A DNA stretch of 64,000 nt, taken from assembly GCA_035645855.1 (NCBI GenBank), contig DASQLU010000067.1:231-64230 (forward strand), written 5' to 3'. The translations under genes and the position numbers were made by a program. Below, one piece after another: positions 6,300 to 46,351 of this stretch (the stretch's first letter is position 1; each line of letters starts with the position of its first letter). The notes beneath the pieces are model-generated. The model was given only the letters and a program-made list of their open reading frames with translations, was not told the DNA's origin and ran no database searches. Source of the DNA: Pyrinomonadaceae bacterium. GTDB lineage: Bacteria; Acidobacteriota; Blastocatellia; Pyrinomonadales; Pyrinomonadaceae.

Positions 6300-6308
6300 C
6301 GGCTTTAG

Positions 6309-9687: not shown

Positions 9688-9694
9688 GGCTGCC

Positions 9695-19934: not shown

Positions 19935-19943
19935 GGGTGCGTT

Positions 19944-28164: not shown

Positions 28165-31100
28165 ATGGAAAAACCCTCATTCAAGAAAACCTCAGCGGCG
28201 AAGCTGGACGAGCGACTGGAAGAATTCTTCATACGACAACTCGGTTACTCCGCCCCTATCAAAAATGATCCGGACGAGAAGCCGGGCGATCCCCACTACT
28301 GGCGCATGGTCTTTCCCCTGCCTAACTCACGACCGCTCGCCGTGGCTTACCAGGCCAACCTGTCAACGATGAAGCGGCAGGACGTCGCGCGCCTCTACAT
28401 CAATAAGGTGGTGCCGCACCGCGACAGTACGCCGGCCCAGCCAGCCCCGATTCTTTATGTGTTTACGGACGGAGCGCGGTTCGTCTTCTTCAGCGCGGAT
28501 ACGGCGCGTAACCGCGACGACCGCTTCGACCTCTCCGATGAGACCTGGCAGTTCGAGGGCGTACGCGGGAAGGTCGAAGCCTTACGCGTTAGCGGCGAAG
28601 AGACGCCGCTCGCGAGCAGCCGCGACAAGGTGCGGTTCGGCAATCTGATCTTTCAGAAGCGGTTGGGGAAACTGACGCCGCAGGTCGAGTTCCTCTTCGA
28701 TTCTTCGCACCTCTCGGCGGACAACCGCTTCAAGAATTACGTGCGCGACGTGCGCCGCCACTTGATGCAGGAGGTCGTGGCGGACGAGGCGGCGCTCGCG
28801 GCAGTCATCTACCACCTGCTGGAGACGCCGGAGGCGCGCGAGGGCAAAACCGACACCCTCTATGCCGACAAAAGCGTGAACAAGAAGGGGGACGGTTACA
28901 CGCTGAAAAAATCGCTGGACGAGTTGCATCTGGAATTGAAGACGCGGCTCGGCGACGCGGTGGCGGCGGCGGTGGACACGCTCTTGCTGCGCTATGTGAT
29001 GGTGCGCTTCCTCGAAGCATATCACCCGGAGGCGATGGAGGGGCTGCTCGGCTCGAAAGAGATGCTGACGAAGGGCAACCGCAGGCGCAAGAGCGCGATG
29101 TTCGACGGCAAGACCGGGAAGAAGCTCGACGCGACGCTCTACGATGCGGAGGGCGTCCGCACGTCGAAGTTCAGTCAAGAGGAGTTGGAGCTGGCGCAGT
29201 TGTTTTCGCGCTCGCTGACCGTCGACGCTTCCAGGGCGCAGAAATCCAGAACGCGCAAAGCCGAAGCCGCGCAGGGCGACCTGTTCATCATCGAGAACAC
29301 AGCCGTCGTGCTCGAAGAGGAGGAGAAGCGGGAGCGCACGCTGGGGGGCGATTTCTACCTGGCGGATTTGGGCAAGGCGGCGCGGGCAATTGAGGAGACA
29401 CTGCTGAGGCAGAAGGACACGCGCGGCTCGATGCTGTTGCAGGATTTCTTAGGGCGGACGGGCGAGACGGTAGAAGAGACGGGCGCGTCACGCTGGCAGT
29501 TCCGCTACGAGGATTTGAAGCCGAAGACCTTGCAGGACTACTACGAGGATTCGCTCTCGACCGCCGTGCAACTCACCTACAACGCCGACGCCGGCGAGTT
29601 CAGGGTTGAGGTCGGCACGTCGAACCGCCAGCGCAAGGAACTCGGGGCTTACTACACCAATGAGCACCTGTGCCGCTTCATGGTCGAGCGCACGGTGAAG
29701 CCTCTGTTCGACGAGCGGCTTGAGCGGCTGCGTGTGAGCGTGGAGCGAGGCACGGCGCATGAGGCGCGCTCCGCGTTCGATGCGGTGATGAGCTTTTCGG
29801 TGTGCGACCCGACGATGGGGAGCGCGCCCTTTTTGCGTTCGGCGTTCGATTATCTGGTCGAGTCAACGCAATACTTCCAGTTGCACCGCCACGTCGCCGC
29901 GCTGAAGGGGCGGCACGCGGCGCTGTACGAGGAGATCGTCGGGGAGTACGAATTTCTGGGCGCGAAGGGTGGGCGGCTCGATGCGAACGGCATCGGCGGT
30001 TGGGAGTGGCACGTCCTGCGGCGCGCGCTCTACGGCGTGGATATAGACCTCAAGGCGGTGTGCATCGCGTGCCAGACGTTCGCGCTCTCTTCGATGCGTC
30101 ACCTCAAACAGGGCGAGCGGTTTCCCTCTTACTTCAACATCAACCTCAAGCTCGGCAACGCGCTGATTTCGCCCACGCGCCCGGCAGACCGCGCACGGCT
30201 CGCCGCCGAACACGGGGCGGAGATTGCGGAGCTGATACGCCTGCGGCGGCGCGCGCAGAGCTTGCCGAACACGGAAGAGGCGTATGTGGAGCTGGTGGAA
30301 CTGTTCAGAGAGGCTGACCGCGTGCGCCTGCCGATTTTGCGCGGGCTGGTGGAGGAGCACGTCTATCCGGTATTGGAGAATTTCACGGACGAGCTACGCC
30401 CGTTCAGTTGGGAGCTTGAATTTCCCGAAATATTTTTCAACGCGGACGGGACGTTGAAGGCGGCGGCGGCAGGCTTCGACGTAGTCATCGGCAACCCGCC
30501 GTGGGAAGCGATCAAGTTTAACGACAACGAATTTTTGCGCTCGATTAACGCGGGCGACGGCGCGAGCGTCGAAAATTTGAGCAAAGAGAATGAGGCGGTG
30601 GCGGACGCCTACGAGCATTATCGCGCGTTGATTGAGCGTTGGAAGTCCTGGGTCAGCGACGGCGGGCAGTATGAGCGGCAGCAGGGCGGGCGCGACCGCA
30701 ACAAGTGGCGGCTCGCAACGGAAGTCTCTTGGAAGCTGACGCAGCCGCAGGGCGCGTTGAGCCTCGTCGTTCCCGGCGGCATCATCGCAGACGAAGGCGG
30801 CTACGCGCTCAAGCGCTGGATTTTCCCCGAAGGCGAGGCGCACACGTTCATCTCTTTCGAGGAGACTAATAATGTGTTCTCAGGCACGCAAGGTTTCACC
30901 TTGATGGGTTTCCGTAAAGGGCGAGCGACGAAAGAGGTACGACATCTAGAAGGTCTAACTAAAGCTGAACAACTGATGGAGATGGGCTTCGTCCCCGCCG
31001 CGCTATCATTGGCGATCATCGAAAAGATGAGCCCGCTTGCCCTGGCCGTGCCGTCAGTGCGCGATAGCCTTGATAGTTCAATCATCGAAAAAATATATCA

Positions 31101-31836
31101 GCACCCCTTAGTTGTAGATAACACGGCTTCATGGCACGCGCGCGCAGTTTCTTACGACTATCATATGGGTAACGACCGTGAACACTTCGAGCGGGGTGGG
31201 AAAATCCGGTTGCTGGAAGGTAAGAGCGTTAAGGCGTATGAAATCGTCCCTGATAGCCAGATAGAAAAAAGGGTTGCTGCGCGTCGTCAGCATGAAGAGG
31301 ATGGACAATACCGGGTAGGCTGCGGCGCGATTGCGGGTATGTCGCTAGCCCGTCGCATGTTCTGTTCCATCTTACCTCACGGCTACGCGACAGGTGATAG
31401 TATCAACATCTTCCTGATTAATGGAGACAACGCCACACGACTTTTACTTGTTGCTGTGCTTAACAGTTTAGTGGTGGAGTGGCGTGTGAGACAGATTGCT
31501 CGTAATAACAACATCAATAAATTTATGATGGCGCAGCTTCCCGTGCCGCGACCGCCGAGGGCGGATGTTGAGAGAATCGCCGCGCTCGTCGCCGCGCTCG
31601 TCACGGCGGACGCGCGCCTCAAGGATTTGCAGCCGCTCCTGAACGGCACAAAGCCTGCCAGCACCGAAGCCGCGCGCCACGACCTCAAATGTCGCATTGA
31701 TGCGGAAGTGGCATACCTCTTCGGCTTGACCGAGGAGGAACTCGACCGCGTCCTCGACTCCTTCGACAAAGTGCCCGCCGCCACCAAAGACCTCGTGCGC
31801 TCGCACTTCAAAACTTTAGCCGCAGGTAAGGCATGA
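28165..31836 (+). CDS. Large gamma-class N6-adenine DNA methyltransferase (Eco57I / PglX / DrmMI-like)
   Basis: Strong RBS (ggagaaggaag before the ATG). LGAYYTNEHLCRFMVERTV, motif I VCDPTMGSAPFL (29801-29833), motif IV VVIGNPPWEAIKF (30490-30507), and a TaqI-like C-terminal target-recognition region (LLEGKSVKAYEI). The about 480-aa N-terminal region has no recognisable nuclease motif. Confidence 0.85.
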   Translation: MEKPSFKKTSAAKLDERLEEFFIRQLGYSAPIKNDPDEKPGDPHYWRMVFPLPNSRPLAVAYQANLSTMKRQDVARLYINKVVPHRDSTPAQPAPILYVFTDGARFVFFSADTARNRDDRFDLSDETWQFEGVRGKVEALRVSGEETPLASSRDKVRFGNLIFQKRLGKLTPQVEFLFDSSHLSADNRFKNYVRDVRRHLMQEVVADEAALAAVIYHLLETPEAREGKTDTLYADKSVNKKGDGYTLKKSLDELHLELKTRLGDAVAAAVDTLLLRYVMVRFLEAYHPEAMEGLLGSKEMLTKGNRRRKSAMFDGKTGKKLDATLYDAEGVRTSKFSQEELELAQLFSRSLTVDASRAQKSRTRKAEAAQGDLFIIENTAVVLEEEEKRERTLGGDFYLADLGKAARAIEETLLRQKDTRGSMLLQDFLGRTGETVEETGASRWQFRYEDLKPKTLQDYYEDSLSTAVQLTYNADAGEFRVEVGTSNRQRKELGAYYTNEHLCRFMVERTVKPLFDERLERLRVSVERGTAHEARSAFDAVMSFSVCDPTMGSAPFLRSAFDYLVESTQYFQLHRHVAALKGRHAALYEEIVGEYEFLGAKGGRLDANGIGGWEWHVLRRALYGVDIDLKAVCIACQTFALSSMRHLKQGERFPSYFNINLKLGNALISPTRPADRARLAAEHGAEIAELIRLRRRAQSLPNTEEAYVELVELFREADRVRLPILRGLVEEHVYPVLENFTDELRPFSWELEFPEIFFNADGTLKAAAAGFDVVIGNPPWEAIKFNDNEFLRSINAGDGASVENLSKENEAVADAYEHYRALIERWKSWVSDGGQYERQQGGRDRNKWRLATEVSWKLTQPQGALSLVVPGGIIADEGGYALKRWIFPEGEAHTFISFEETNNVFSGTQGFTLMGFRKGRATKEVRHLEGLTKAEQLMEMGFVPAALSLAIIEKMSPLALAVPSVRDSLDSSIIEKIYQHPLVVDNTASWHARAVSYDYHMGNDREHFERGGKIRLLEGKSVKAYEIVPDSQIEKRVAARRQHEEDGQYRVGCGAIAGMSLARRMFCSILPHGYATGDSINIFLINGDNATRLLLVAVLNSLVVEWRVRQIARNNNINKFMMAQLPVPRPPRADVERIAALVAALVTADARLKDLQPLLNGTKPASTEAARHDLKCRIDAEVAYLFGLTEEELDRVLDSFDKVPAATKDLVRSHFKTLAAGKA

Positions 31837-32411
31837 CCGCGCGCACACTCCACGTCCATCTCAGCCGCGAAGCTGCCGCCCGCCTCGACGGCGACAGCAA
31901 TGCCGCCGGGCAGACGCTCCGCGATTGGCTGCTCGATGCCTTCGAGCGACGGATAGAGCCGTGCCTCGCCCACGCCTCGCTCTTCAGCACCTCAATCGAA
32001 GTCGCGCCGGACGTGCCCCTGCTCATTGAAGCCTACACGCGCATCGCCGCCTGCACGCCCGAAGAACTCATCGAAGCGTGGCTCATGGAGCCGCCCGCCG
32101 CCGACGGCGCAGTCAAACGCGCACGCGTCGCAGCCACGCCCGCCGCCGCTCCAACTCTGTCCGGCGAGACGCTAGGCAAAGTCGCGCAAGTCCTCGACAT
32201 GGGTGAGACGCTCCTTGAAGCCTTCGCCGCCGACGCGCGCCGCAAGCTCGGCGGCACGTACCCCGAAGGCGACAAAGCGGCGCAGACCATGTCCGAAATC
32301 TTTCGCGCCCTGCGCGTCACCATCGGCTTGCAACAGCCCGCGTCTCAACCCGCCGCACGAGGCGATGTGGGTGTAACCCCAATTCATATCGAGCCGACTC
32401 CACATGAGTGA
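31833..32411 (+). CDS. Small protein with N-terminal ribbon-helix-helix-like segment
   Basis: The ATG overlaps the methyltransferase stop (ATGA at 31833-31836). TLHVHLSREAAARLDGDSNAAGQTLRDWLLDAFERR fits a strand-helix-helix pattern. The rest is Ala/Pro-rich. Confidence 0.5.
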   Translation: MTARTLHVHLSREAAARLDGDSNAAGQTLRDWLLDAFERRIEPCLAHASLFSTSIEVAPDVPLLIEAYTRIAACTPEELIEAWLMEPPAADGAVKRARVAATPAAAPTLSGETLGKVAQVLDMGETLLEAFAADARRKLGGTYPEGDKAAQTMSEIFRALRVTIGLQQPASQPAARGDVGVTPIHIEPTPHE

Positions 32412-35400
32412 CCGCATCATCCAATTCATCAACGAGGCGCTGCGCCCCGCGCCCGAAGGGATGCAGTTCGAAGTGCTCGAACGTGCGGTCGCGGATAAGC
32501 TCGGTCACCCGGTCGCGCGCGGCTCGCTGCGCAGCCTCCTCGTCCGCAACTCGAACCTATTCGTCGAGGACGCCGGGGGGCGCTGGAGGCTAAGGGTTCA
32601 CGCGGAAACAGTGGAGCCCGAGGACGGCGAGCCCGCCGCCGGTCAGGTCTTACGCAAGCCCCTCACGCGCGGTCGCTTCGTCGTCTTCGACCTGGAGACG
32701 CTCGGGCGGGAGGCAGCCGGCGACGACATAGAGATTATCGAAATCGCCTGCGCCAGGTACGAAGGCGGTCGCCGTGTAGACACCTGGCAAACGTTCGTGC
32801 GTCCGAGCACGAGCATCCCCAAGCTCATCACCGAGCTCACCACTATCACCGACGACGACGTGAGCGACGCGCCCGGTCAGCGCGAAGCCCTCGAAGAATT
32901 CTTCCGCCGCACCGCCAGCTACCCGCTCATCGCGCACAACGGCTTCGCCTTCGACGGCGTCGTGCTCCGTAACGTCGCCACGCGTGTCGGTCTGGAAGTC
33001 CCGGCAGACCTGGTTCTGCTCGACACACTCCCGCTCGCGCGCCTGTTCCTGCAAGGCGCGGGGCAGCGGCATAACAACGAGGCGTTGGCCGAGCACTACG
33101 GAAGTTTTCGCACGGGTGCGCACCGCGCCGACGCCGACGTGGAGATGCTCTGCGGCACGGTCGAAGGTCTCATCGGAGAGACCAACAGGCACCCGGCAGG
33201 GGCTTTAATTTATGAGCTGCTGCGACGCTCCGGCGAGCCTTGGGCTGACCTCCTCGATCCGCCGCAACACTCCTTCGACCTCGAAGCAATCCTCTCCCTC
33301 TTCGGCGGCGCGCAGAAGCCGCTCCTGCCGACGCCTGTTGAGAGGCGCGGGGCGTTGGGCGCCTCCGCTCCCATTCAGGGCGCGGAAGAGGGCAACGTCA
33401 ACGAACTGTTCGAAGAGATGGCTCGCGCCGGGCGCGAGCGGCGCGAGCCGCAGATACGGTTCGCGCAACTCGGCGCCGAAGCCCTGCGCTCGGGACGTTT
33501 CGCCGTGGTGGAGGCGGGCACCGGAACGGGTAAGAGCCTCGGCTACCTCGTGCCCGCCGCGCTGCACGCGCGAGCCGCCGGCATGCCGGTCGTCATCTCG
33601 ACCTATTCGAAAGTGCTTCAGACACAACTCGTCGAGAAGGATGTCACTTACCTCAGCAGTCTCCTGCCGGATTTAACCGCCGCCGTTCTCAAGGGGCGTG
33701 GCAATTATCTCAGCATCCGGCGGCTCCGCGAAGAGATTATAGACGCCGTCGATGAAGACAGGATTTCAAGGGCGCGTGCGTGGACGCTCGGCACGCTAAC
33801 GTCGTTCTCGCTAAGTTCTGAAACAGGCGAGCTGGAATCGGTTTCTTTCGCCGTCGATAATCTTGACGAATACCTGGACTCGCGGGGCGAGGCGTTGCGC
33901 GTGCGCGACAGCGTCAGGGCAAGTGCGGGTGGCGGCGGCGGTCAGCCGGAACGCCCGGCGGGCGGGCGGCTCGACTTCTACGAGGCGGCGCGGGAGAACG
34001 CCAGCCGCGCCGACTTGATAATTTTAAACCACAGCCTGCTGCTCACGCAGGCGGTTATGGCTGGAGACCGACTACCCGAGCTGCTGTCGCCCTTCGTCGT
34101 CTGTGACGAGGCGCACAACCTGGAAGACGCCGCGACCTCCGTGCTCAAAAACGAAGTCACCGAGGTCAGCTTCCGCCGCCTGCTCCGTGCCGTCCACGAC
34201 AAGAGCCGCCGCGCCGGATTGCTGGCGACGGTGCGCAAGGCTGGCGTTGCTGCAAGCGATGAGGCGATGACCTCCGCGCTCGGCGCGCTCGCGGACGTCG
34301 AAACTCATTTCACCAACCTTTCTACACGGCTAAGGTCTTTCGTCGTCGCCAACACCATCCAGTCAAAGGAAGACCTCGCACGCTTCGGGGCGCAGGTCGA
34401 AATCCGTCCCGCCAGCCTGCAAGGGTCTGGGGGAGGAGCCCTGCGCGAATCCGCGCTCGCCCTGCGCGAAGCCCTCTTCCGCCTGCGCCCCGCGCTCGAC
34501 GCGGTTGCGAGACGCACACTCGGCGCGGACGCCGACGCACCGGCGGGCGGCGCGGAAGTCTCACGGCGTCGCTCCGAGCGCGCGATTCGCCTGGCCCGCT
34601 TCATCATCCACGAGCTGACCGAAGTCGAAAAGACGCTCAACTGGTTCTGGACGTTCGCGGAGGCGACCGCCTACGTGCGGGTGATCGGATTGCAACCCGA
34701 GCGCTACGGGGGCACAGCCACGTGGACGCTCGAAGGTTCGCCGATTGACGTGAGCGCGCTTCTCTACGAAAGGCTGTGGTCGCGGCTCGGAGCCGGAGTC
34801 TTCTGCTCGGCGACACTGGCGACATACGGAGATGGGTTCGGCTTCTTCCTGCGTCGAACCGGCGTCGGTCGCCTCGGCGGAGCCCGCCTCATCACCGAAA
34901 TCCTGCCGCACGTATTCGACTACAAGTCCAACGCCCTGCTCGCGCTGCCCGCTCACCTGCCGACGCCCCGCGACGAGGCGCTCAAGGAGTTGTTCCCACA
35001 AGCGATTGCGAACGAGATGCTGCGGTTCATTCCGCACTTTCACGGGCGCACGCTAGGTCTCTTCACCGCGAGGTCTCGCATGCACGCCGTGCACGAGCAG
35101 GTCGAAGCGCCTTTGAGGGAGCAGGGTTATCCCGTGCTCCGCCAGGGCGACGGCGCGCTCGACCGGCTGCGCCAGGAGTTCGAGGGGCACGAAGCGACGA
35201 GCCTCTTCGGCGTGCGCTCGCTGTGGGAGGGTATCGACGTGCCGGGGGCGTCGCTCTCCTTCGTCTTCATGAGCAAGATGCCTTTCCCGTCACTCGGCGA
35301 CCCGCTTGAGGCGGCGCGCAACGCGGCGGTCGAGCGCGCCGGCGGGAACAGCTTTTACGACTACTTCCTGCCGCGCACCATCTTTACCTTCAAGCAGGGG

Positions 35401-37878
35401 TTCGGACGCCTCCTGCGCTCGGAGACGGATCGCGGCGCGGTCATCCTCTTCGACAAGAGGCTGCGCGGGGCGACCTACCGCCCGGATGTACTTCAATCGC
35501 TGCCTGCACCCACCATCTCCTACGACTCTGACGTCGAGATGTACAGGCGCATCTCCGAATGGATGGGGGAGCCTTTCGACGAATCGCTCCTGGCGCCGCT
35601 GCCGCTGCGCGAGATCGATCAACTGCTCGCGGAACACACGCTGGCGAAAGCGATCTATACGGAAGAGGAGTTCGAGGAGGTGGTGCTGCCACACCTCAGG
35701 GCTGTGCTCAAAGGCGTGTGGGGCTTCGACGACTTCCGCCCCGACCAGCTCAACGTCATCCGCCACGTCCTGACCGGGCACGACCTGCTCGCGCTCTACC
35801 CGACCGGCGCCGGCAAGAGTCTGACCTTTCAGCTCCCGGCGCTCATACGTCCCGGTCTCACCCTCGTAATCTCGCCCCTCATCGCCCTCATCCGCGACCA
35901 GGTGCAGAAGCTCAGGCACGAGAACGAGGTCGGCTTCGTTAACTGTCTGGTCAGCGGCATGACGGCGATGGAGCAGGAGGAGGTCTTAAGCGACGCCCGC
36001 TCGAACCGCTTGCGTATCCTGTACGCGTCGCCGGAACGCCTACGCGACCCGAGGTTTCGCGCCTTCCTCGCCGACCTCCCCATCGTTCAGTTGGTCATCG
36101 ATGAGGCGCATTGCATCTCGACGTGGGGGCACGACTTCCGCCCCGATTTTCTGGAGATCACATCGCTCCTCCCGGCAGCCGAGCAGATTCCCATTCAAGC
36201 ACTGACCGCCACCGCGACGACGCCCGTGCGGGCTGAAATTAAGAATGCGTTACGGCTCGGGGACAGGGGGCTTCCGCTCGCAACCCTCGTTGGGGATTTC
36301 CGGCGCGACAACTTAGTTTTCCGCGTCTTCCGACCGCAGTCCGGGGCAGAGCGCGACGCCCTCGCCGTGAGCCTCGCGGCGCAAATCGTCGGCGACGCCG
36401 AGCGGGGAGGCGCCGGAATCATCTACGTCGCCACGAGGCGGGAGGCGGAGCGCATTGCCGGGCTTCTACGGGCGAGGAACATCGCCGCGCAGCCCTATCA
36501 CGCCGGGCTTCCCACGCCCACCCGGCACCACATTCAAGAGCTCTTCATGCAGGGCGAGATACAGGTAGTCGTCGCCACCAACGCCTTCGGCATGGGGGTG
36601 GACAAGCAGGAGATCAGGTTCGTTTTGCACTACGACCACCCGAGTTCGGTCGAGGCATACGTCCAGGAGTCAGGGCGCGCCGGTCGTGACGGGCGCGAGG
36701 CTTACGCCATCCTGCTCTACTCTAAGCGCACGCAAGGCACCCATCGCTTCCTCGCGCGGCAGGGCGTCCCGAGTCCCGATGAAATCGTCGAGGTGGCGCG
36801 GCAAATTCTTAACCCCGCATTCGACGGGGCGCTCAGGCTGACTGATGGCACCGTGCACACATCGATGGAGAGTCTCGTGGAGGAGTTGGGCTTCGAGGAC
36901 ACCAAACTCAGGGTCATCATTCATGCCCTGGAGGGGAGTGAAATCCTCAAGCGGGGTGAGGATTTCGCGCTGGAGGCGACCGTGCTACTCAACCGCCCCT
37001 CTCCGGAAATTGTTCGAGAGCTTTCCGGGGAAGACAAGGCGCTCTTCGAAATTCTCTCGGAGGCGTTTGGGTTCGCCGTCGACACGCGCAGCCACTACAA
37101 CTCCTTGCAATTCGTGCGCGCGACCTCACAATCACCCTCGTCGGTAGACCGCCTGCTTCACCGTCTGGCGCTCAAAGGCGATCTCATTTACCGGAGCTTC
37201 GCACGCGGGAGCAGTTTCGCGCCCGGCGAGCGGGCTTTAGACAGCCGGGCAGTGAGGGACGCCGCCGGCAGGTTTCAAGATCGTCTTGCTCAGTTCACAA
37301 GACGCCTCAAAGACATCATCCGCTACGCCGAACTGGGCTCAGACCGGGGGCACTGTCGCGCCAAATTCCTCGTCGAATACCTGACGGGCGCGGGCGCCTC
37401 TTCGGAGTCTGCCGGTGCGCCAGGAAAGTGCGGGAAGTGCGACCTGTGTGCGCCCGGCTACCCGCTGCCGTGGTCGCAGGCGGCCGTGATCGCGCCCGAG
37501 CCGCTGCAAGTCGAACCGACCATGGCGATACTTGAAATGGTGCGCGACCATGAGACGAGTAGTTCGATTAACACGCTCATCAAGATGTTGCTGGGGGAAG
37601 CCTTCGGCAACGCCGGCGGCGAGCGGTATTCACTCTCCGCCTACGCACGGAACTCCGAGCACTTCGGGGTGCTGCGCGGCAGATCGAGTCACGTAAAACT
37701 TAAAAGCTACTTCGACGCGCTAACGGACGGCGGATACATTGCCGTGGTCGAACGCCAAAGTGCGGGCGGCGGAACTTACAGATCGGTGCGACTGACGGAT
37801 CGCGGGCGGGACGTCTTAGCCGGCGCCGTCCCCGCCCCGGGTAGCGGAGAGCCGATCACGGTGGAGGACGCCACTTGA
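32404..37878 (+). CDS. 1824-aa fusion: HARE-HTH-like N-terminus / DEDDh 3'-5' exonuclease / DinG(XPD)-family helicase / RecQ-family helicase with Zn-finger and C-terminal wHTH-like tail
   Basis: Overlaps the upstream gene by 8 nt.
- Exonuclease: FVVFDLETLG (ExoI), IAHNGFAFDGVVL (ExoII), HRADADVEML (ExoIII).
- DinG: VEAGTGTGKSLGYLVPA, VVCDEAHNLEDA, SLWEGIDVPG, FKQGFGRLLRSETDRGAVILFD.
- RecQ: FRPDQLNVIRHVL, YPTGAGKSLTFQLPA, VIDEAHCISTWGHDFRPDF, ALTATAT, VVATNAFGMGVDKQEIRFVLHYDHPSSVEAYVQESGRAGRDG, GKCGKCDLC. Confidence 0.9.
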   Translation: MSDRIIQFINEALRPAPEGMQFEVLERAVADKLGHPVARGSLRSLLVRNSNLFVEDAGGRWRLRVHAETVEPEDGEPAAGQVLRKPLTRGRFVVFDLETLGREAAGDDIEIIEIACARYEGGRRVDTWQTFVRPSTSIPKLITELTTITDDDVSDAPGQREALEEFFRRTASYPLIAHNGFAFDGVVLRNVATRVGLEVPADLVLLDTLPLARLFLQGAGQRHNNEALAEHYGSFRTGAHRADADVEMLCGTVEGLIGETNRHPAGALIYELLRRSGEPWADLLDPPQHSFDLEAILSLFGGAQKPLLPTPVERRGALGASAPIQGAEEGNVNELFEEMARAGRERREPQIRFAQLGAEALRSGRFAVVEAGTGTGKSLGYLVPAALHARAAGMPVVISTYSKVLQTQLVEKDVTYLSSLLPDLTAAVLKGRGNYLSIRRLREEIIDAVDEDRISRARAWTLGTLTSFSLSSETGELESVSFAVDNLDEYLDSRGEALRVRDSVRASAGGGGGQPERPAGGRLDFYEAARENASRADLIILNHSLLLTQAVMAGDRLPELLSPFVVCDEAHNLEDAATSVLKNEVTEVSFRRLLRAVHDKSRRAGLLATVRKAGVAASDEAMTSALGALADVETHFTNLSTRLRSFVVANTIQSKEDLARFGAQVEIRPASLQGSGGGALRESALALREALFRLRPALDAVARRTLGADADAPAGGAEVSRRRSERAIRLARFIIHELTEVEKTLNWFWTFAEATAYVRVIGLQPERYGGTATWTLEGSPIDVSALLYERLWSRLGAGVFCSATLATYGDGFGFFLRRTGVGRLGGARLITEILPHVFDYKSNALLALPAHLPTPRDEALKELFPQAIANEMLRFIPHFHGRTLGLFTARSRMHAVHEQVEAPLREQGYPVLRQGDGALDRLRQEFEGHEATSLFGVRSLWEGIDVPGASLSFVFMSKMPFPSLGDPLEAARNAAVERAGGNSFYDYFLPRTIFTFKQGFGRLLRSETDRGAVILFDKRLRGATYRPDVLQSLPAPTISYDSDVEMYRRISEWMGEPFDESLLAPLPLREIDQLLAEHTLAKAIYTEEEFEEVVLPHLRAVLKGVWGFDDFRPDQLNVIRHVLTGHDLLALYPTGAGKSLTFQLPALIRPGLTLVISPLIALIRDQVQKLRHENEVGFVNCLVSGMTAMEQEEVLSDARSNRLRILYASPERLRDPRFRAFLADLPIVQLVIDEAHCISTWGHDFRPDFLEITSLLPAAEQIPIQALTATATTPVRAEIKNALRLGDRGLPLATLVGDFRRDNLVFRVFRPQSGAERDALAVSLAAQIVGDAERGGAGIIYVATRREAERIAGLLRARNIAAQPYHAGLPTPTRHHIQELFMQGEIQVVVATNAFGMGVDKQEIRFVLHYDHPSSVEAYVQESGRAGRDGREAYAILLYSKRTQGTHRFLARQGVPSPDEIVEVARQILNPAFDGALRLTDGTVHTSMESLVEELGFEDTKLRVIIHALEGSEILKRGEDFALEATVLLNRPSPEIVRELSGEDKALFEILSEAFGFAVDTRSHYNSLQFVRATSQSPSSVDRLLHRLALKGDLIYRSFARGSSFAPGERALDSRAVRDAAGRFQDRLAQFTRRLKDIIRYAELGSDRGHCRAKFLVEYLTGAGASSESAGAPGKCGKCDLCAPGYPLPWSQAAVIAPEPLQVEPTMAILEMVRDHETSSSINTLIKMLLGEAFGNAGGERYSLSAYARNSEHFGVLRGRSSHVKLKSYFDALTDGGYIAVVERQSAGGGTYRSVRLTDRGRDVLAGAVPAPGSGEPITVEDAT
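32665..33200 (+). other. DnaQ-like DEDDh exonuclease domain of the 1824-aa protein
   Basis: DLET at about 32689, HNGFAFD at about 32935, H-x4-D (HRADAD) at 33121-33144. Confidence 0.8.
33400..35500 (+). other. DinG/XPD-family superfamily-2 helicase domain lacking the Fe-S cluster cysteines
   Basis: Walker A at 33508-33540, DEAH at 34099-34119, motif VI-like at 35390-35420. There is no Cys between Walker A and DEAH other than the one in VVCDEAH. Confidence 0.75.
35700..37460 (+). other. RecQ-family helicase domain with distal Zn-binding cysteines
   Basis: Motif 0/I at 35725-35824, DEAH at 36095-36118, motif VI at 36664-36693, CGKCDLC at 37429-37452. Confidence 0.8.
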
Positions 37879-39368
37879 GATACGCCCGCCCGGTAAATTA
37901 CCGACTCAACCCTCGCCATGAGATTTCCCTCCTCGACCGGGTGGCGGGCGAGTTCTCAACTTCCCGCTACACCTTCACGGAAGAGGAGGCTTTAGCCGAC
38001 GTGTGGACTTCGGGAGAGGACGTGCGCCTGCGCGAAGACTCACGCTTTTGGGAGATTGAAGGAACCGGGCATTTTCAACTGGCACAGCACTCTCTCGCAA
38101 ACGAAACGCTCGTCGACCGCCTTTGGCAGGGCGTGTGGGACGGTTCCGACGTCGAGTCTGAGTTGCGGCGTCTCGACGAGGCAGCAGGTGGCAGCTATCA
38201 CGTGTTCTGTCCGGCAGACCCGCGCTTCGTAGGGCAGGAAGGAAGGCTGATTTTAGCAGCCTGCCCCACCGTCGCATTTACGGAAGAGGTGCGCGCGGCG
38301 TTTGACGCCTTGGCTGGAGAACTCCTCCGGTACCACCGCCAGAGCGGGACGCCGCTCAACACACGGGAGTTCATCGAACTCGTGCTTCGGATTAAGGACG
38401 ACCTGCCAGTCGAAATCGATGACGTCGAGCAGGCGGAGAGTTGGCTGTGCGGGAGGGGAGAGTGGGCGGAAATAGCTCGCTCCCTGTGGCTCCCCGCAGA
38501 CATGGTTCCGGTTTTGGAGACACCGAAGCCTCTTAGGGTCTGGCGCATCCACGGCGGACACGGTCGAGAGGTCGGGGCGGAAGAGTGTCAGGTTGTCGAA
38601 CCGGCTGAGAGTGAGGGCGATGCACCGGAGGGCTGCGTCCTTCGCTTACCTGACCCTCCGGTCGAGCGACACCCCGACTCCGCCGTCTCCTGGACACACA
38701 CACTGCGCGCCGTACACATCCTCGGCAACTACCTGCCGGTGCCGATTGGTGCGCGCTTTCGCTATCCGCGTTTCGTCGGTCGAAACGGGTCGGTAGCCAT
38801 CCACGCGCTTGCACACAGCACGGGGCGCGAAGGCTACCTTTGGCTTGACCGTGAGCACCACCGATTCTCCGGGGATTTGCTCAGGGATATTATCGAGTGG
38901 GAGGAAGCAGGTCGCAAACTCGTAATCAACTGGCGACCAGAAGGCGTCGTCATCCTCCTTGGTGAGGTAGACCACGAAGTGCTGCGAGAGGAGCGGCGCC
39001 ACGTCGATCCCAAGGCGCTTCACGAATTGAGAATGGGGCGCGGCGAATCTTACCGGCGAGCGCTCGGCACCATCCTTAAACAGCATGACGCCGGTGTAAG
39101 CTTCCGGACTCTTTACGATGAATTGGTGAAAGTTCAAGGACACTATCCTGGCCGTCAGTCGATCCGGGCGGTGCTTACTCAGTCACCCGAATTTTCCTAT
39201 GAAAATTCGGGCTGGCGCTGGCTCCCCGTCCCGGGGGCGGCTGAAACATTCAGGAGGCGCGTCGTACTCGGCGACCTCACGGCTGCCGCGCCCGGGCGAG
39301 GTAATGACCTCGGCGCTCTCGCCGACGCGGTCGGCTCGGCAATAAGGGAGTTACTCTCCCGAGGCTAG
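37875..39368 (+). CDS. Hypothetical protein with C-terminal HARE-HTH-like domain
   Basis: A TTG start overlaps the upstream stop (cacTTGAga, 37875-37878). The C-terminus YRRALGTILKQHDAGVSFRTLYDELVKVQGHYPGRQSIRAVLTQSPEFSYENSGWRWLP fits the HARE-HTH pattern ending in G-W-x-L. No Cys cluster, so it is not DUF1998-like. Confidence 0.6.
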   Translation: MRYARPVNYRLNPRHEISLLDRVAGEFSTSRYTFTEEEALADVWTSGEDVRLREDSRFWEIEGTGHFQLAQHSLANETLVDRLWQGVWDGSDVESELRRLDEAAGGSYHVFCPADPRFVGQEGRLILAACPTVAFTEEVRAAFDALAGELLRYHRQSGTPLNTREFIELVLRIKDDLPVEIDDVEQAESWLCGRGEWAEIARSLWLPADMVPVLETPKPLRVWRIHGGHGREVGAEECQVVEPAESEGDAPEGCVLRLPDPPVERHPDSAVSWTHTLRAVHILGNYLPVPIGARFRYPRFVGRNGSVAIHALAHSTGREGYLWLDREHHRFSGDLLRDIIEWEEAGRKLVINWRPEGVVILLGEVDHEVLREERRHVDPKALHELRMGRGESYRRALGTILKQHDAGVSFRTLYDELVKVQGHYPGRQSIRAVLTQSPEFSYENSGWRWLPVPGAAETFRRRVVLGDLTAAAPGRGNDLGALADAVGSAIRELLSRG

Positions 39369-39414: not shown

Positions 39415-39570
39415 TGCCAAAAACCCACACTTTTCGAACACGAATACACGTCGGGATTCAACTTCAAGAATGTAAAGATAGGACGCTTCGCGCTCGAAAA
39501 TCCGGTCGCCCGTTTTTATCAAGGCACACGCGGAGATCATGCCAGTGCCACATATGACGGTTTAATGTGA
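39415..39570 (+). pseudogene. Barnase-family ribonuclease, C-terminal remnant only (N-terminally truncated)
   Basis: The frame is open only from 39415: TLFEHEYTSGFNFKNVKIGRFALENPVARFYQGTRGDHASATYDGLM, then a stop. Compare the barnase C-terminus READINYTSGFRNSDRILYSSDWLIYKTTDHYQTF: the E-x-x-YTSGF segment, the Arg and the DH positions are retained. There is no start codon, and its TGA overlaps the GTG of the barstar-like gene. Confidence 0.55.
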
Positions 39571-40055
39571 TGCACCTACCAGAGCAATTCTATCTATCGG
39601 CCAACGAGCCGCCTGTAATCTTCATGCCTGAAGATGAGGCTGATAACTTTGTTTATGAGTTGCAATGCGACCCTGACGGCGGGGCAGTGAGAGTTATCCG
39701 TGGCCGGAAATGCCCCACCTCCGCCGCCCTGCATAACGAAGTCGCAGCCGCGCTCCAATTCCCCGGTTATTACGGCGAGAATTGGGACGCGATGGACGAA
39801 TGTATTACCGACCTGGCCTGGATGCCTGCGCGGTGGTACTTGATTCATGTGAACGACATAGAGCTAATCCTGCCGGACGACGAGAAGGGCTTTAATATCT
39901 TCCTTAGAATCCTGCGTGACGCGGGAAGGGCCTGGGCGCACCCGGAATCGCGTGGTCTGGCTAATGACGAGGAGAGAAGTTGCAGGCCGTTTAATGCAAT
40001 CATCTCCGGCTCGGGAGAGGGGCTTCTACGCGCGGGGAAGGCGCTCGGCCGGTAA
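39567..40055 (+). CDS. Barstar-family ribonuclease inhibitor (immunity protein)
   Basis: LHNEVAAALQFPGYYGENWDAMDECITDL closely matches the barstar core [28 protein letters not shown]. Confidence 0.8.
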   Translation: MMHLPEQFYLSANEPPVIFMPEDEADNFVYELQCDPDGGAVRVIRGRKCPTSAALHNEVAAALQFPGYYGENWDAMDECITDLAWMPARWYLIHVNDIELILPDDEKGFNIFLRILRDAGRAWAHPESRGLANDEERSCRPFNAIISGSGEGLLRAGKALGR

Positions 40056-40476
40056 TGCGCGGGCGCGATCCAGCAACGACACGCGCCCGACCCGAAGCGT
40101 TCCTCCCTTACGCGCAGACCACCGCCACCTTCGCATATCCCACGCCTGACGAAGCCGGATTAAGCAGCGTGCCAATAACCGTACCAACACGCCCGGCGTG
40201 CCACAGGTCAAATATGAGCGATCTGGAAGGCTCTGCTAATGGGCGGGTTCACATAAGGCGATTTATCAGAATTGACAATGAAAATGGCGGACGGGAAAGT
40301 GCGCTTTTGCTGGATCGGGCGGGGCGTGAAACTTGCCCGAATCCTGCAGACCATCTTCCGCGCCGCGAAACAATCTTTGCAACACTACCGAAGTCGCCAT
40401 AGCAGCGAGTGCTGTAACGACCTCTCCCGCTTCTCTCCAAGCAGAGACCAAAACTTATTCCCGCACGTCAATTGCC

Positions 40477-43400
40477 TTACTGCTGACCGAAACGGAGTTT
40501 GTACTCGGTCGAGTTCATGAAACCGCTAACCATCGTGCGAATGTCGCCCGACTGCAGCACCCGCAGCCACGCATCGTAGCCGGCCGATTCAGGCTTCCGC
40601 CGCAAGTACCCGTAGTACTGCATCCCTACGAAAGCATTGTTGTACTCCAAAGCGCCCACCGCGTCCGAGTCCGCGATGGCGCGCAACACCTGCCCGCGCG
40701 TCAGTGTGTTGGCGTTGAGCCTGCCGGTCAGGTCTGCGCCCGTCAGCGTTACCTTCGCGGTGCCGTCCGGCTGCGACGGGTCTGGCATCGTCACCTGCGA
40801 CAGTTGATAGCGCCCCATCAATGCTGCCACGTATTGCGCGTGCGTCATCCCGCCGTAGGCGTTCCGGAACTCCGCCCTCTCCGTGAACAGCGTCGCCAGT
40901 TGCGCTTTGCGTGCGTAGACCTCTTGCGGGGTCGCCCCGGCCACATAACTCATGTCCGAGACGATCTCCGTGTACTCGGGCAGGCGGTTGAAGGCCAACC
41001 GGTAGAAGCGGAAGACGTAGAAGCCTTTTAACTGAAACTCCGGCGAGCGGAAGAAACTCTGCGAGACGGCGATGCGGTCACACAACGGATCGTTGTCGAC
41101 GTTCGGGCAGCGGTGCAAAACATTCGACCACGGCTCGCCCGCCTCGGGCTCTCTGGAGAGGAAGTCGAGGTAGTGTTGGCGCACGAAGAAGGGCGTCGCG
41201 AAGATGGGGTTCGCGGCATTCACCGCATCGTTATCCTGAATGGTGATGGTGGCGACAGCGGTCGCCCCGAGGGACGCGCCTGATGGGTTACTGATGCGCA
41301 GTTGGAAAGTCTCTGCCGCTTCGGCGTGCCCGTCGTCGATGATCGGCACGGTGAGAGTCTTTGAGACTTCGCCCGGGGCGAAGGAGAGCGTGCCGACCGT
41401 GATCGCAAAGTCGCAGCGCGCGTAGGCGCCGCCCTGATTGTTCACGCGGTCGGCGCACCCGACCGTGAAGGTGTCCGCATCCGCCGTGCTGTAGTCCACC
41501 ACGGCCGCGCCTGATGTATCCCCTGTCCGCACCACCGAGACGGTGGCGCGTTCCGCGCCTTCGCTGAAGCTGTAGCTCGCCGCCTCGAATTGAACCGTGC
41601 CCACGGCCGTACGGCAGGCGGCCGAGAGGATAAGCGTGACGTTGCCGGAGCCCTGGTTGGCGACGGCGATGTCAGGCCGGGAGTCGCCGTTAAAATCGGC
41701 GAGCGCGAGCATGCGCGGGCTGGCTCCGACGCCGAGCTGGCCGGCTGCACTGAAGCCGCCTGCGCCGTCGCCGAACAGGGTGGAGATGGTGTTCGACACG
41801 TTATTGAGCACGAGCAGGTCGAGTCTGCCGTCGCCGTTCAGGTCGCCCGCGGCGACCTTGTTCGGGAAAATCCCGACCGCGTACTCACCGGCCGCGCTGA
41901 AGCCGCCCGCGCCGTTGCCGTGTAGAACGCCGAGCTTGCTCGGGTCCTGGTACGTCACCGCGAGGTCGGCTTTGCCGTCGCCGTTGAAATCGTTTATGGC
42001 GACGAAGTTCGGGCGCGGGGCGGTCGGGAGGTTGGTGTTACTCGCGACGCCGCCCGCGCCGTTGCCGAGCAGGATCGTCAGGTTGTTCGTGTCGTAGTTG
42101 GGGACGACCAGATCGGGGCTGCCATCGCCGTTCAAGTCTCCGACGATGGCGGCCATCGGGGCGATGCCGACGGCGAAGTTGACCGGACTAGCTAAGCCGC
42201 CCGCCCCGTTGCCGAGCATGACCGAGACGCTGTGCGGGCTGCGGTTGACGAGAATTAAATCCAGCTTGCCGTCCCTGTTGAAGTCGGTCGTCGTAACGAA
42301 GACGGCATGGCTGGGGCCGACGTGGCCGCCGGTGAAGCCGCCCGCCCCGTTGCCGAGCAGGATCGAGACGCCGCCCCCGATGAAGGCCAGATCGAGGTCG
42401 CCGTCGTTGTTGAAGTCGCCGGCCGCGACCGAGTCCGGGGATAAGCCCGGCACGTTGAAATACGAGGGCGCGGCGAACTGCCCCGCGCCGGTGTTCAACA
42501 TCAAGGCGGCACGGCTGCGCGTGGAGTCGGGCGCGACCAGATCGGGGCGGCCATCGCGGTTGAAGTCGCCCGCGACCACCCAGCTGGTGGAGGTGGTGCT
42601 CCCCACCCTGAGGGTGGACGCGGTGGTGAATGCACCGTTCCCCTCGCCGAGCACGACGGACACGTCGTCGGAGCCGAAATTGGCGACCGCGAGATCGACG
42701 ATCTGATCGCTGTTAAGATCGGCGGCGACGACCGCGTGAGGCTTGCCGCCGGTGGGGAAAGACAGCTGCCGGGAGAAGCCGCCCGCGCCGTCGCCGAAGA
42801 GCACGCCCGCCACGTTCGTCGGCTGGTAGACGCCGGCCACGTCGGCTTTGCCGTCCTGGTTGAAGTCGCCCGCGACGAGCGCCGTGACTTCCGTCGTGAA
42901 CTCGACCGGTTGCCCGAACCCGCCAGCCCCGTTGTTCAAGAGGATCGACACCCTGCGGTGGTTCGGGCTGGTGACGGCAAGGTCGGGCCGGCCGTCACCG
43001 TTGAAGTCGCTCGCCACCACATGGAAGGGGGCGGTGGCGGCGAAGAAGGAGGAGGCGGGGCCGAAGTTGCCCGTGCCGTCGCCGAGCAGGAGCGCTGCGT
43101 TGTTGATGGCGCTGCTCACCACCACCACGTCCAACTGGCCGTCGCCATTAAAATCGGCCACGGCAAGCTCGCGCGGGACGGAGACAGCGGGGTGATTCAT
43201 CGTCGGCGCGAAGCCGCCCGTGCCGTTGCCGATCAGGATAGAGATGTTTCCGACGCCGGTGTCGTGGCTGGAGTTGGACACGGCCAGATCAGGGCTGCCG
43301 TCTTTATTGAAGTCCGCCACGACGGCGAAGACCGGGTTAGTACCGGTGCTGAAAGTGCCCCCGGCAACGAATCGTCCGTCGCCTGAGCCGAGCAGTAGCG

Positions 43401-43791
43401 TGACGCCGCCGCTGTACTGCACGACGGCCAAGTCCTGCTTAGCATCTTTGTTGAAGTCCGCGACCCTGACGTAGGTGGGGACATCCCCGCCGTCGATGCG
43501 TTGAGCCTCCCCGAACTTACCGCCGCCCACCCCGAGCAGGATCGCAAGGTCTGCCGGGAAGCCCGCATAGACGACCGCCAAATCCTGATGGCCGTCGTTG
43601 TTAAAGTCGCCCGCGGCGACCGAACGCGGGTTATTACCGACCGAGTAGTTGTGCGCAGCCCTGAAGCTGATCGCCGTACACCCCGCGGAGGCGAAAGCCT
43701 TTAGAGCACCCACTGAGTGTGCACAAGCCAGCACAAGGAGAAAACCCAGAAACAGCGCGGCCTGATTTGTCGAAGTGATTTGACGAGGCAT
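40477..43791 (-). CDS. Secreted FG-GAP/VCBS-repeat protein with Calx-beta and C-terminal DUF4214 repeats
   Basis: Signal peptide, then about 14 repeats of the type (A)DFNGDGKxDLAV...G.G...F. Calx-beta-like segments follow (VQFEAASYSFSEGAERATVSVVRTGDTSGAAVVDYSTAD; TLSFAPGEVSKTLTVPIIDDGHAEAAETFQLRISNP), then DUF4214-like FVRQHYLDFLSREPEAGEPW and YYGYLRRKPESAGYDAW. Confidence 0.85.
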   Translation of the reverse strand: MPRQITSTNQAALFLGFLLVLACAHSVGALKAFASAGCTAISFRAAHNYSVGNNPRSVAAGDFNNDGHQDLAVVYAGFPADLAILLGVGGGKFGEAQRIDGGDVPTYVRVADFNKDAKQDLAVVQYSGGVTLLLGSGDGRFVAGGTFSTGTNPVFAVVADFNKDGSPDLAVSNSSHDTGVGNISILIGNGTGGFAPTMNHPAVSVPRELAVADFNGDGQLDVVVVSSAINNAALLLGDGTGNFGPASSFFAATAPFHVVASDFNGDGRPDLAVTSPNHRRVSILLNNGAGGFGQPVEFTTEVTALVAGDFNQDGKADVAGVYQPTNVAGVLFGDGAGGFSRQLSFPTGGKPHAVVAADLNSDQIVDLAVANFGSDDVSVVLGEGNGAFTTASTLRVGSTTSTSWVVAGDFNRDGRPDLVAPDSTRSRAALMLNTGAGQFAAPSYFNVPGLSPDSVAAGDFNNDGDLDLAFIGGGVSILLGNGAGGFTGGHVGPSHAVFVTTTDFNRDGKLDLILVNRSPHSVSVMLGNGAGGLASPVNFAVGIAPMAAIVGDLNGDGSPDLVVPNYDTNNLTILLGNGAGGVASNTNLPTAPRPNFVAINDFNGDGKADLAVTYQDPSKLGVLHGNGAGGFSAAGEYAVGIFPNKVAAGDLNGDGRLDLLVLNNVSNTISTLFGDGAGGFSAAGQLGVGASPRMLALADFNGDSRPDIAVANQGSGNVTLILSAACRTAVGTVQFEAASYSFSEGAERATVSVVRTGDTSGAAVVDYSTADADTFTVGCADRVNNQGGAYARCDFAITVGTLSFAPGEVSKTLTVPIIDDGHAEAAETFQLRISNPSGASLGATAVATITIQDNDAVNAANPIFATPFFVRQHYLDFLSREPEAGEPWSNVLHRCPNVDNDPLCDRIAVSQSFFRSPEFQLKGFYVFRFYRLAFNRLPEYTEIVSDMSYVAGATPQEVYARKAQLATLFTERAEFRNAYGGMTHAQYVAALMGRYQLSQVTMPDPSQPDGTAKVTLTGADLTGRLNANTLTRGQVLRAIADSDAVGALEYNNAFVGMQYYGYLRRKPESAGYDAWLRVLQSGDIRTMVSGFMNSTEYKLRFGQQ

Positions 43792-45847: not shown

Positions 45848-46351
45848 ATGAATGTCTTAGCGGATTTGCAGAAATGGTATGCGTCTAATTGTGACGAGGA
45901 GTGGGAGCATACCTTTGGGATCGAAATCGGCACCCTGGACAATCCCGGCTGGGCAGTGAATATCGACCTTGAGGAAACCAACCTTGAAGGGAAAGAGTTC
46001 CCGAGGATCGAAGATAATTCATCAGCAGAGTCATGGATTATCTGCTGGGTTGAAGGTAAAAAGTTTCATGGTGCAGGCGACCCCGACAAGCTCGAAAGGA
46101 TTCTTAAAACCTTCATGGATTGGGCGAAATCCCACAACGGTAATTGGCTAAAGCCGCCCGCCCCGATGACGGATGAGGAGAGGCAGATGTATGAAGATGA
46201 GAAGCTATTTGCCTCGCTGGATGGTGAGCTTGAAGGAGAAGGGTGTCAGCATGAGGGCTGTGATCGGAGCCGCATCCGGTATAGCGTGATGTGCCGTGAG
46301 CATCATTTTGCGATGGTCACAGGGCGTACTGTGCCGAAGCGCGTCAGCTAA
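45848..46351 (+). CDS. Imm53-family immunity protein (polymorphic-toxin system immunity), orphan
   Basis: LQKWYASNCDEEWEHTFGIEIGTLDNPGWAVNIDLEETNLEG is the hallmark of Imm53 (W..CDG.WEH..G..I.TLDNPGW.V.IDL..T.L). No toxin gene lies upstream. Confidence 0.75.
   Translation: MNVLADLQKWYASNCDEEWEHTFGIEIGTLDNPGWAVNIDLEETNLEGKEFPRIEDNSSAESWIICWVEGKKFHGAGDPDKLERILKTFMDWAKSHNGNWLKPPAPMTDEERQMYEDEKLFASLDGELEGEGCQHEGCDRSRIRYSVMCREHHFAMVTGRTVPKRVS

Follow-up and report, generated by a model that had tools for sequence, protein, structure and literature searches.

Already in 2005 Omelchenko et al. pointed out a "three-domain fusion protein (DnaQ, DinG, RecQ)" encoded on plasmid pTT27 of Thermus thermophilus HB27, the gene for which is absent from strain HB8 (PMC1274311). 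In later Thermus papers the pTT27 gene (TT_RS10770; protein WP_011174436.1 of 1649 amino acids (aa)) is listed as recQ among the recombination genes (PMC11143384, PMC13140390), and it belongs to the shell genes, being accessory, dispensable and highly permissive to transposon insertion (PMC13140390). The present analysis deals with a fusion of the same kind, an exonuclease-DinG-RecQ protein of 1824 aa, which is encoded at 32404..37878 on the + strand of a 64,000-nucleotide (nt) stretch of Pyrinomonadaceae (Acidobacteriota) DNA. This whole stretch is called the window here, and coordinates refer to it unless a locus number is given. Literature searches pairing ExoDinG (exonuclease-DinG) or DinG with RecQ brought up no functional study of such a fusion, and RecQ is nowhere mentioned in a review from 2025 that sorts the DinG-like proteins into groups, ExoDinG among them (PMC11981726). 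The fusion is thus far known as a curiosity and is widely mis-summarised as 'RecQ', while its genomic context appears to be new. Added here are a conserved partner with predicted B3 and winged-helix domains and the repeated attachment of DinG-RecQ proteins to type I restriction-modification (R-M) systems, to DISARM, and to an SNF2 helicase with a PglX-like methyltransferase.

Several described proteins resemble the fusion in part. The ExoDinG proteins, represented by DinG of Staphylococcus aureus and Bacillus subtilis, likewise combine an N-terminal DEDDh exonuclease with a DinG helicase without a full iron-sulphur (Fe-S) site (PMC11981726, PMC12345164), but they comprise only ~900 aa, have no RecQ module and play roles in repair or RNA quality control. 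CasDinG of the type IV-A CRISPR-Cas systems is a further Fe-S-less DinG, with 5'-3' polarity and a function in immunity (PMC10450177). The PADLOC model typeIV_DinG matches residues 339-1037 of the fusion; CasDinG, however, possesses neither an exonuclease nor a RecQ module, and those open reading frames (ORFs) of the window that were scanned included no CRISPR-Cas genes within the operon or next to it. With bacterial RecQ the fusion has the RecQ core, the zinc site and, below the Pfam threshold, an RQC-like winged helix in common, whereas an HRDC domain was not detected and ~180 aa are inserted before the zinc site. Several true RecQ helicases are devoid of HRDC. In human WRN a 3'-5' exonuclease and a RecQ helicase are also joined in one chain, but the fusion carries a whole second helicase between these two parts. 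WRN is a eukaryotic protein that acts in repair.

A functional analogy only may be drawn to RecBCD, AddAB and AdnAB, which would share with the fusion two motors of opposite polarity and a nuclease working at DNA ends. RecBCD degrades restricted foreign DNA. These enzymes possess superfamily 1 (SF1) motors on separate subunits and RecB-type endonuclease domains, whereas superfamily 2 (SF2) motors and a DEDDh exonuclease are found in one chain in the fusion; a sequence relationship between them and the fusion was not detected. As to gene order, the nearest described layout is that of DISARM class I and ARMADA, consisting of an SNF2/BrxHII-like helicase, a PglX-like methyltransferase and a YprA-family helicase (PMC12458937).

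Architecture and conservation of the fusion

The fusion gene starts with ATG and has 0 internal stops according to the ORF list and the translation. Its product is 100% identical to P0001, a protein from a Pyrinomonadaceae metagenome-assembled genome (MAG) named RecQ family helicase at NCBI (L and P numbers denote the loci and proteins compared), and the family as a whole is filed there as 'RecQ family ATP-dependent DNA helicase'. In a word-indexed search the fusion was matched at 98-100% query coverage by over 110 clusters of 1750-1930 aa, drawn from NCBI, JGI, ENA and Logan assemblies. In addition, an exhaustive HMMER search was run with residues 860-1300, which cover the linker together with the adjoining halves of DinG and RecQ; among the 150 best representatives at the 50% identity level, more than 100 matched this DinG-RecQ junction in one stretch, the proteins measuring some 1500-2050 aa. 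The initial annotation had regarded the architecture as undescribed, which fails in view of the report from 2005 (PMC1274311) and of this widely shared junction. Named members of the family are found in Tengunoibacter tsumagoiensis and Thermosporothrix (both Chloroflexota), in Desulfofundulus salinus (Bacillota) and in a Verrucomicrobiae MAG, and further ones on plasmids of Thermus, Meiothermus and Deinococcus. No phage record covers the junction, and a phage origin of the fusion was ruled out on this ground.

Split copies exist in two loci, L017 (1058 aa + 421 aa + 301 aa) and L018 (391 aa + 1433 aa), and look like frameshifts in otherwise identical operons. They are the one observation in favour of regarding the fusion itself as an artefact, in which two or three genes were joined by a sequencing or assembly error, an explanation that is almost certainly wrong. 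More than 110 independent full-length clusters have a common length, the complete genomes of the cultured T. tsumagoiensis, T. thermophilus HB27 and D. salinus carry the gene, and the linker between DinG and RecQ is in part conserved in the family alignment. Moreover, misassembly is excluded because the catalytic residues of all three modules are kept in 105 full-length homologues. The single 1824-aa polypeptide of the initial annotation is therefore borne out by the uninterrupted ORF and by same-length clusters from independent assemblies, and the frameshift or assembly error it had considered as an objection is ruled out by the independent homologues together with the junction search.

Conservation was checked at each catalytic position in an alignment of these 105 homologues, which cover a range of 33-87% identity, and the Pfam matches to RNase_T, DEAD_2, Helicase_C_2, DEAD and Helicase_C all exceed the curated cut-offs. 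The chain begins with a winged-helix-like module without a Pfam match (residues ~1-70, 32404..32613, +), of which residues 19-61 (32458-32586) resemble a winged helix of the partner protein described below (residues 407-449, 39093-39221; pairwise E 8e-6). An identity of these winged-helix modules with HARE-HTH is not claimed, since it was suggested by the sequence pattern only and Pfam was blank. The DEDDh 3'-5' exonuclease domain follows at residues 93-250 (32680..33153, +; Pfam RNase_T, 7.7e-20), and its residues D96, E98, D184, H240 and D245 are invariant.

The adjoining DinG/XPD-type SF2 helicase comprises residues ~339-1040 (33418..35523, +) and is recognised by Pfam DEAD_2 (526-587) and Helicase_C_2 (874-1034; 3.7e-36). 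Together with the exonuclease it is matched over practically the full length of PRK08074, the NCBIfam model of the Bacillus-type exonuclease-DinG (positions 3-929 of the 931 in the profile, residues 90-1054 of the fusion), at 451 bits, which misses the equivalog cut-off of 789; the best solved relative of this part is S. aureus DinG (PDB 8zef). Motifs I, II and VI (K377, D568/E569/H571 and Q998/R1002/R1005) are invariant or nearly so. Only one cysteine is located between motifs I and II, as in 72 of the 105 homologues, and 21 others have two, so that the absence of an Fe-S cluster applies to the whole family. This agrees with the initial annotation, which had seen no cysteine cluster between Walker A and DEAH of the DinG part.

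A linker of about 60 aa (residues ~1041-1098, 35524..35697, +), partly conserved in the family alignment, leads over to the two RecA-like domains of the RecQ core at residues 1099-1445 (35698..36738, +), with Pfam matches to DEAD at 1112-1274 (6.8e-34) and to Helicase_C at 1327-1430 (4.6e-23). Here the cut-off of the family model recQ_fam (TIGR00614) is passed with 344.2 bits versus 219.8 over residues 1101-1442, whereas that of the RecQ equivalog TIGR01389 is missed (392 versus 640). K1138, the DEAH box at 1233-1236 and R1425/R1428 are again invariant or nearly so. Sequence searches of the PDB led to 4tmu and 1oyw (E 1e-77), and an AlphaFold2 model of residues 1040-1824, computed from an alignment of 44 sequences (pLDDT 85), matched the RecQ catalytic core 1oyw in Foldseek with an E-value of 7.5e-33. 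In the same model an insertion of ~180 aa (residues ~1455-1630, 36766..37293, +), which separates the zinc site from the core, forms two helix-helix-strand-strand units and a long helix with a mean pLDDT of ~90; the units look like winged helices, a reading taken from the order of secondary structures rather than from a fold search.

Beyond the insertion lie the zinc-binding region (residues 1633-1682, 37300..37449, +; Pfam RecQ_Zn_bind below threshold, E 0.002), whose cysteines C1651, C1676, C1679 and C1682 are present in 104 of the 105 homologues, and an RQC-like winged helix (residues 1708-1808, 37525..37827, +). The latter stays below the Pfam threshold (E 0.0014; 18.9 bits versus 23), but some homologues of the fusion pass the RQC cut-off (PF09382). 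An HRDC domain gave no Pfam match in the fusion, even at E-values up to 5. In two homologues, P0067 (2291 aa) and P0105 (1902 aa), an intein domain of the LAGLIDADG type (PF14528) is inserted.

Taken by the curated subfamily cut-off the protein is a RecQ-family member, and by architecture it is an ExoDinG. Every motif that had been quoted initially for the exonuclease, DinG and RecQ is present and invariant or nearly so, and in Pfam, NCBIfam and the family alignment neither helicase module lacks catalytic residues; both ATPase sites are, judging from this alignment, under strong purifying selection. The Thermus fusion has the same order of RNase_T, DEAD_2/Helicase_C_2, DEAD/Helicase_C and RecQ_Zn_bind and is, too, an accessory gene in a defence-rich region. 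However, its identity is only ~32% over residues 771-1805, it is shorter, and it has no N-terminal winged helix, its exonuclease beginning at residue 9. At its locus a homologue of the 497-aa partner is missing and no methyltransferase is annotated within 12 kb.

The partner protein and the genomic context

The start of the partner gene (37875..39368, +; 497 aa) overlaps the stop of the fusion gene by 4 nt. The protein has no match in Pfam, NCBIfam or PADLOC, but in every sufficiently long locus of the subfamily the same gene or a counterpart of 29-40% identity is found directly downstream of the fusion; between the window and Tengunoibacter the identity is 29% (E 1e-47). In an AlphaFold2 model (pLDDT 84) it has a beta-rich domain at its centre and, in addition, three helix-helix-strand-strand units. 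For the beta-rich domain, Foldseek gave the N-terminal domain of LlaJI.R1, a subunit of a restriction enzyme (6c5d; prob 1.0, TMt 0.58, rmsd 3.4 Å, ~105 columns) and the DNA-bound B3 domain of plant VAL1 (5yzy; prob 0.94). The partner is accordingly predicted from the model to consist of a B3-like DNA-binding barrel and winged helices. The B3 fold serves as DNA-recognition domain in EcoRII and BfiI.

In 13 of 53 partner clusters (among them P0138, P0141, P0146 and P0154) an extra C-terminal Peptidase_S24 domain of the LexA/UmuD type is present, and the Ser/Lys dyad (GRSM...VKRY) is intact in both S24-bearing sequences that were read. This hints that in such variants the module may be controlled by the RecA-ssDNA (single-stranded DNA) signal through RecA-stimulated self-cleavage. 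A genome scan with the partner alignment, in which the peptide patterns were narrow, gave 12 loci, and tblastn of the partner against plasmids yielded no match. Two genes at similar positions were rejected as relatives: the 514-aa gene of Thermus that carries the annotation 'BglG' is not homologous to the partner (E 0.41), and the 758-aa gene of D. salinus, which has only the winged-helix module in common with the partner (E 0.001), is not recognisable as DrmE either, since no PADLOC model matched it.

In the window the fusion is the fifth of six + strand genes extending from 23434 to 39368, which are separated by short gaps or overlap by 4-8 nt. In Acidobacteriota (the window, L017, L018 and the contig of P0010) it is preceded by an SNF2 helicase, a protein of ~430 aa, a methyltransferase and a small ORF. 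The full six-gene order is present in L018, and frameshift-type breaks occur in both L017 and L018. The long-read assembly of L017 (2004-15301) contains two copies of the methyltransferase (872 aa and 1209 aa) besides the fusion in three ORFs, a pattern which reflects either an operon that is truly decaying or frameshift errors left uncorrected.

A different neighbourhood is found in Chloroflexota (L001, L003, L004, L011, L016 and L019), where the order is HsdR-HsdM-HsdS, an ORF of 67-107 aa, the fusion and the partner; extra sequence separates hsdS from the fusion in L004, L016 and L019. In all ten partner-bearing loci of the subfamily with enough upstream sequence (10/10) a methyltransferase-based system lies directly upstream. 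Between hsdS and the fusion, L004 carries AAA_15 and DUF4276 genes and has a pPIWI_RE module just downstream (7764-9911, 17165-24681), while L019 carries DUF7380/EMARD_N, a PIN gene and a 739-aa protein (3965-9225); by their gene content both loci are defence hot spots. At the usual position of hsdMS in L005 (657-2305), upstream of the unit of small ORF, fusion and partner, an IS element with a DDE_Tnp_ISAZ013 transposase is located. Of little use were L014, with a fragmented partner and no fusion upstream, the short contigs L009 and L012, and P0329 at the edge of a contig.

Relatives without an exonuclease are associated with DISARM. In D. salinus (L020, 4273-19483) a class 2 DISARM system with DrmA (E 4e-282), DrmB, DrmC and DrmMII includes extra genes between DrmC and DrmMII, coding for an exonuclease-less DinG-RecQ (1611 aa), the 758-aa protein mentioned above, which is DUF7226-like, and an HhH-GPD glycosylase. 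The metagenome contig L021 carries an exonuclease-less DinG-RecQ and a 665-aa gene followed by a DrmA-like helicase, a DrmB-sized gene (609 aa) and a gene for a phospholipase D-type (PLD) protein. Furthermore, L022 adjoins cas1-cas2, and the Thermus gene on pTT27 is located between cas3 and cmr genes. Next to two distant relatives that lack a partner, a UvrD-family SF1 helicase is encoded (L002, 15291-17051; Deinococcus locus L025, 7068-9554), recalling the GajB-like ArmD of ARMADA type II. As judged from these neighbourhoods, the family is a large group of DinG-RecQ tandem helicases occurring in defence islands, and the majority of its loci with sufficient flanks border on systems in which self DNA is marked by methylation.

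The operon of the window resembles DISARM class I and ARMADA in that an SNF2/RapA-like helicase and a PglX/Eco57I-type methyltransferase precede a very large helicase(-nuclease) with a partner, but it has the DinG-RecQ fusion in the place of the YprA-family helicase. DrmA, DrmB (DUF1998/MZB) and DrmC (PLD) have no match among the six operon proteins, and DrmD and DrmMI gave partial matches far below the cut-offs. The YprA/MZB domain, the hallmark of ARMADA, was not found in any operon protein, and HsdR, HsdM and HsdS are absent from the operon, though they stand directly upstream of the fusion in the Chloroflexota relatives. The DpdF equivalog level was not reached (181.7 bits versus 550), PADLOC matches to DpdF are limited to the generic RecQ-like core, and none of the 7-deazaguanine genes dpdA/B/C is present in the window operon. 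By this comparison the operon belongs to none of the systems DISARM, ARMADA, Dpd and type I R-M, as the components that define them were not found in it.

Possible function and competing explanations

With moderate confidence, the fusion and its partner are regarded as a helicase-exonuclease effector module that would be attached to methylation-based discrimination between self and non-self. This is proposed because the layout of SNF2 helicase, PglX-like methyltransferase and large helicase matches DISARM class I and ARMADA. Following this proposal, the methyltransferase would mark the host DNA, and the partner, by means of its B3-like barrel and winged helices, would bring the fusion to unmarked or broken DNA or license it there. 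The fusion might load at an end, a nick or a fork, where the RecQ motor would follow one strand 3'-5' and the DinG motor the opposite strand 5'-3', hence in the same direction along the duplex. The exonuclease would then digest the freed 3'-ended strand, leaving no 3' tail for recombination, and the invading DNA would be destroyed or disabled. RecQ helicases have 3'-5' polarity. For the exonuclease-DinG of S. aureus 5'-3' helicase and 3'-5' exonuclease activity were reported (PMC12345164). The polarities assumed initially are in this way backed in relatives, and a dual-motor action of opposite polarity is plausible for the fusion by analogy. The suggested role against invading DNA also fits the R-M, DISARM-like and CRISPR neighbourhoods, which go beyond what the initial annotation had covered.

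A number of points weigh against this proposal. For every member of the family it rests on sequence, models and context. The exonuclease requires a free 3' end, the source of which is not evident in the window operon. The Foldseek E-values of the B3-like domain are weak (0.04) despite probabilities of 0.94-1.0. No methyltransferase is present within ~10 kb in the distant members L002, Thermus pTT27 and the Deinococcus plasmid, and the defence genes intervening in L004 and L019 fit a mere co-location in hot spots as well as a functional coupling. The exonuclease-DinG proteins studied hitherto have been assigned to crosslink repair and RNA quality control, not to defence. Finally, ATP regulates the activities of S. 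aureus DinG (PMC12345164), so one of the motors here could be a regulator.

This last point leads to an explanation which overlaps the effector model and is somewhat unlikely, namely that one motor translocates while the other either serves as a clamp gated by ATP, wedges the strands apart or regulates the exonuclease. AddB with its inactive motor and S. aureus DinG with its ATP-regulated nuclease would be comparable cases, and the enzyme would have one polarity. Conserved ATPase motifs indicate binding or hydrolysis of ATP and not translocation, high ATP inhibits the activities of S. aureus DinG (PMC12345164), and this protein was first reported as a nuclease without helicase activity (PMC3270479). 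A study from 2025, however, found 5'-3' unwinding by S. aureus DinG (PMC12345164), and among fusion homologues of 33-87% identity neither module varies in motifs I, II and VI, and the RecQ zinc site is kept as well. Slightly less probable, and on the whole unlikely, is a role as sensor or gatekeeper, in which the tandem helicase and the partner detect unmethylated DNA, ssDNA or damage and switch on another killer, the exonuclease merely trimming the substrate, after the models of DrmAB in DISARM and HamB in Hachiman. Candidates for the killer would be HsdR where the locus is of type I, DrmC where it is DISARM, and a possible HEPN protein in the window operon. Other nucleases are indeed found in most contexts, namely HsdR, the PLD enzyme DrmC and the putative HEPN motif of the 437-aa protein described below; the relatives in DISARM loci retain both helicases without the exonuclease, and the Hachiman helicase acts as a sensor (PMC12278908). 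But in the subfamily that has the ~500-aa partner none of the five DEDDh residues varies, from which it follows that the exonuclease activity is selected and not vestigial, and the fusion contains no recognised domain for signalling or protein activation.

A housekeeping or stress-repair function at crosslinks, R-loops or RecQ-type forks, with the proximity to R-M genes caused by chance or shared horizontal transfer, is distinctly improbable. It would agree with the work of exonuclease-DinG in crosslink repair and under replication stress (PMC12345164, PMC12525004), with the placement of the pTT27 recQ among recombination genes by Thermus workers (PMC11143384, PMC13140390), and with the LexA-like S24 domain of some partner variants, a link to a DNA-damage signal. 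Against it stand the patchy accessory distribution, illustrated by the transposon-permissive Thermus shell gene (PMC13140390) that HB8 does not have (PMC1274311), the start and stop codons overlapping with neighbouring operon genes, the occurrence beside three different methylation-based systems in three phyla, and the presence on plasmids and in defence islands. If the protein were a repair enzyme nevertheless, it would be an ordinary though large domain fusion.

A wider proposal that builds on the effector module is put forward as tentative: DinG-RecQ tandems with or without exonuclease may be unrecognised, interchangeable immunity effectors, i.e. single-chain bipolar SF2 helicase-nucleases which no fewer than three types of methylation-based system would employ (type I R-M, DISARM, and SNF2 plus PglX-like), where they would take the place of YprA-family helicases or RecBCD; the window operon would in this case represent a new defence class. 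If true, more than 100 divergent clusters labelled 'RecQ family helicase', including one in T. thermophilus HB27, would be reassigned to immunity. The fusion would be the first case of two opposite-polarity SF2 helicases working in one chain and, as a compact counterpart of RecBCD/AddAB, useful for studies of motor coupling. It would further mean that type I R-M, DISARM and ARMADA-like systems swap large helicase-nuclease components, which bears on how DISARM-like systems stop phage DNA. The strains that carry the Thermus and Tengunoibacter genes are in culture, and genetic manipulation of T. thermophilus HB27 is established (PMC11143384, PMC13140390).

Remaining operon genes and their surroundings

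The first gene of the window operon (23434..26784, +) encodes the SNF2/RapA-like helicase of 1116 aa (Pfam SNF2-rel_dom, Helicase_C), which matches the DpdE, DrmD, BrxHII and RapA models weakly and far below all cut-offs. It is followed by a 437-aa protein (26815..28128, +) without a family match in Pfam, NCBIfam or PADLOC. The motif R368-x4-H373 (RSRFVH) of this protein is invariant in three homologues, and one weak tblastn match (E 2e-4) led to a Priestia plasmid protein annotated as HEPN-domain-containing; the protein may be a HEPN-type RNase, for which these similarities are a hint only. A metagenome scan with the alignment of the 437-aa protein gave a single locus of 1.3 kb.

The third gene (28165..31836, +) codes for a predicted N6-adenine DNA methyltransferase of 1223 aa and of the Eco57I/PglX/DrmMI type (Pfam Eco57I, 2.3e-14), which matches the PADLOC models for type IIG enzyme-methyltransferases and DrmMI as well as, below the cut-off, met_A_Alw26 of NCBIfam (2e-34). 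The fourth gene overlaps both of its neighbours (31833..32411, +) and encodes a 192-aa protein without a family match, which is kept in L017 and L018 with 41-57% identity and shows weak similarity (E 1e-4) to a 67-aa gene at the equivalent position in Tengunoibacter. In Pfam, NCBIfam and PADLOC searches up to an E-value of 5, the 437-, 192- and 497-aa proteins and the N-termini of the methyltransferase and the fusion stayed unmatched.

About 190 nt before the first gene, a strong G+C-rich hairpin of 15 bp followed by a T-rich tail is located (23206-23243, +). It probably ends the upstream methyltransferase-like gene (22028-22894) and marks the boundary of the operon; inside the operon no terminator-like site stronger than chance was detected. 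The flanks consist of ordinary chromosomal genes and immunity-type genes (barstar, Imm53). On the upstream side, a gene for a double-domain KaiC-like ATPase and one for a hybrid sensor with PAS, histidine-kinase and receiver domains follow each other at 18417-21587 (+). Downstream of the operon two toxin-immunity genes are present, one for a barstar-family RNase inhibitor (39567-40055, +), to which an unassigned 115-aa ORF is directly joined (40055-40402, +), and further on one for Imm53 (45848-46351, +). Between them, a gene on the opposite strand (40477-43791, -) encodes a protein of 1104 aa that combines a Calx-beta domain and 13 FG-GAP repeats with DUF4214 at the C-terminus.

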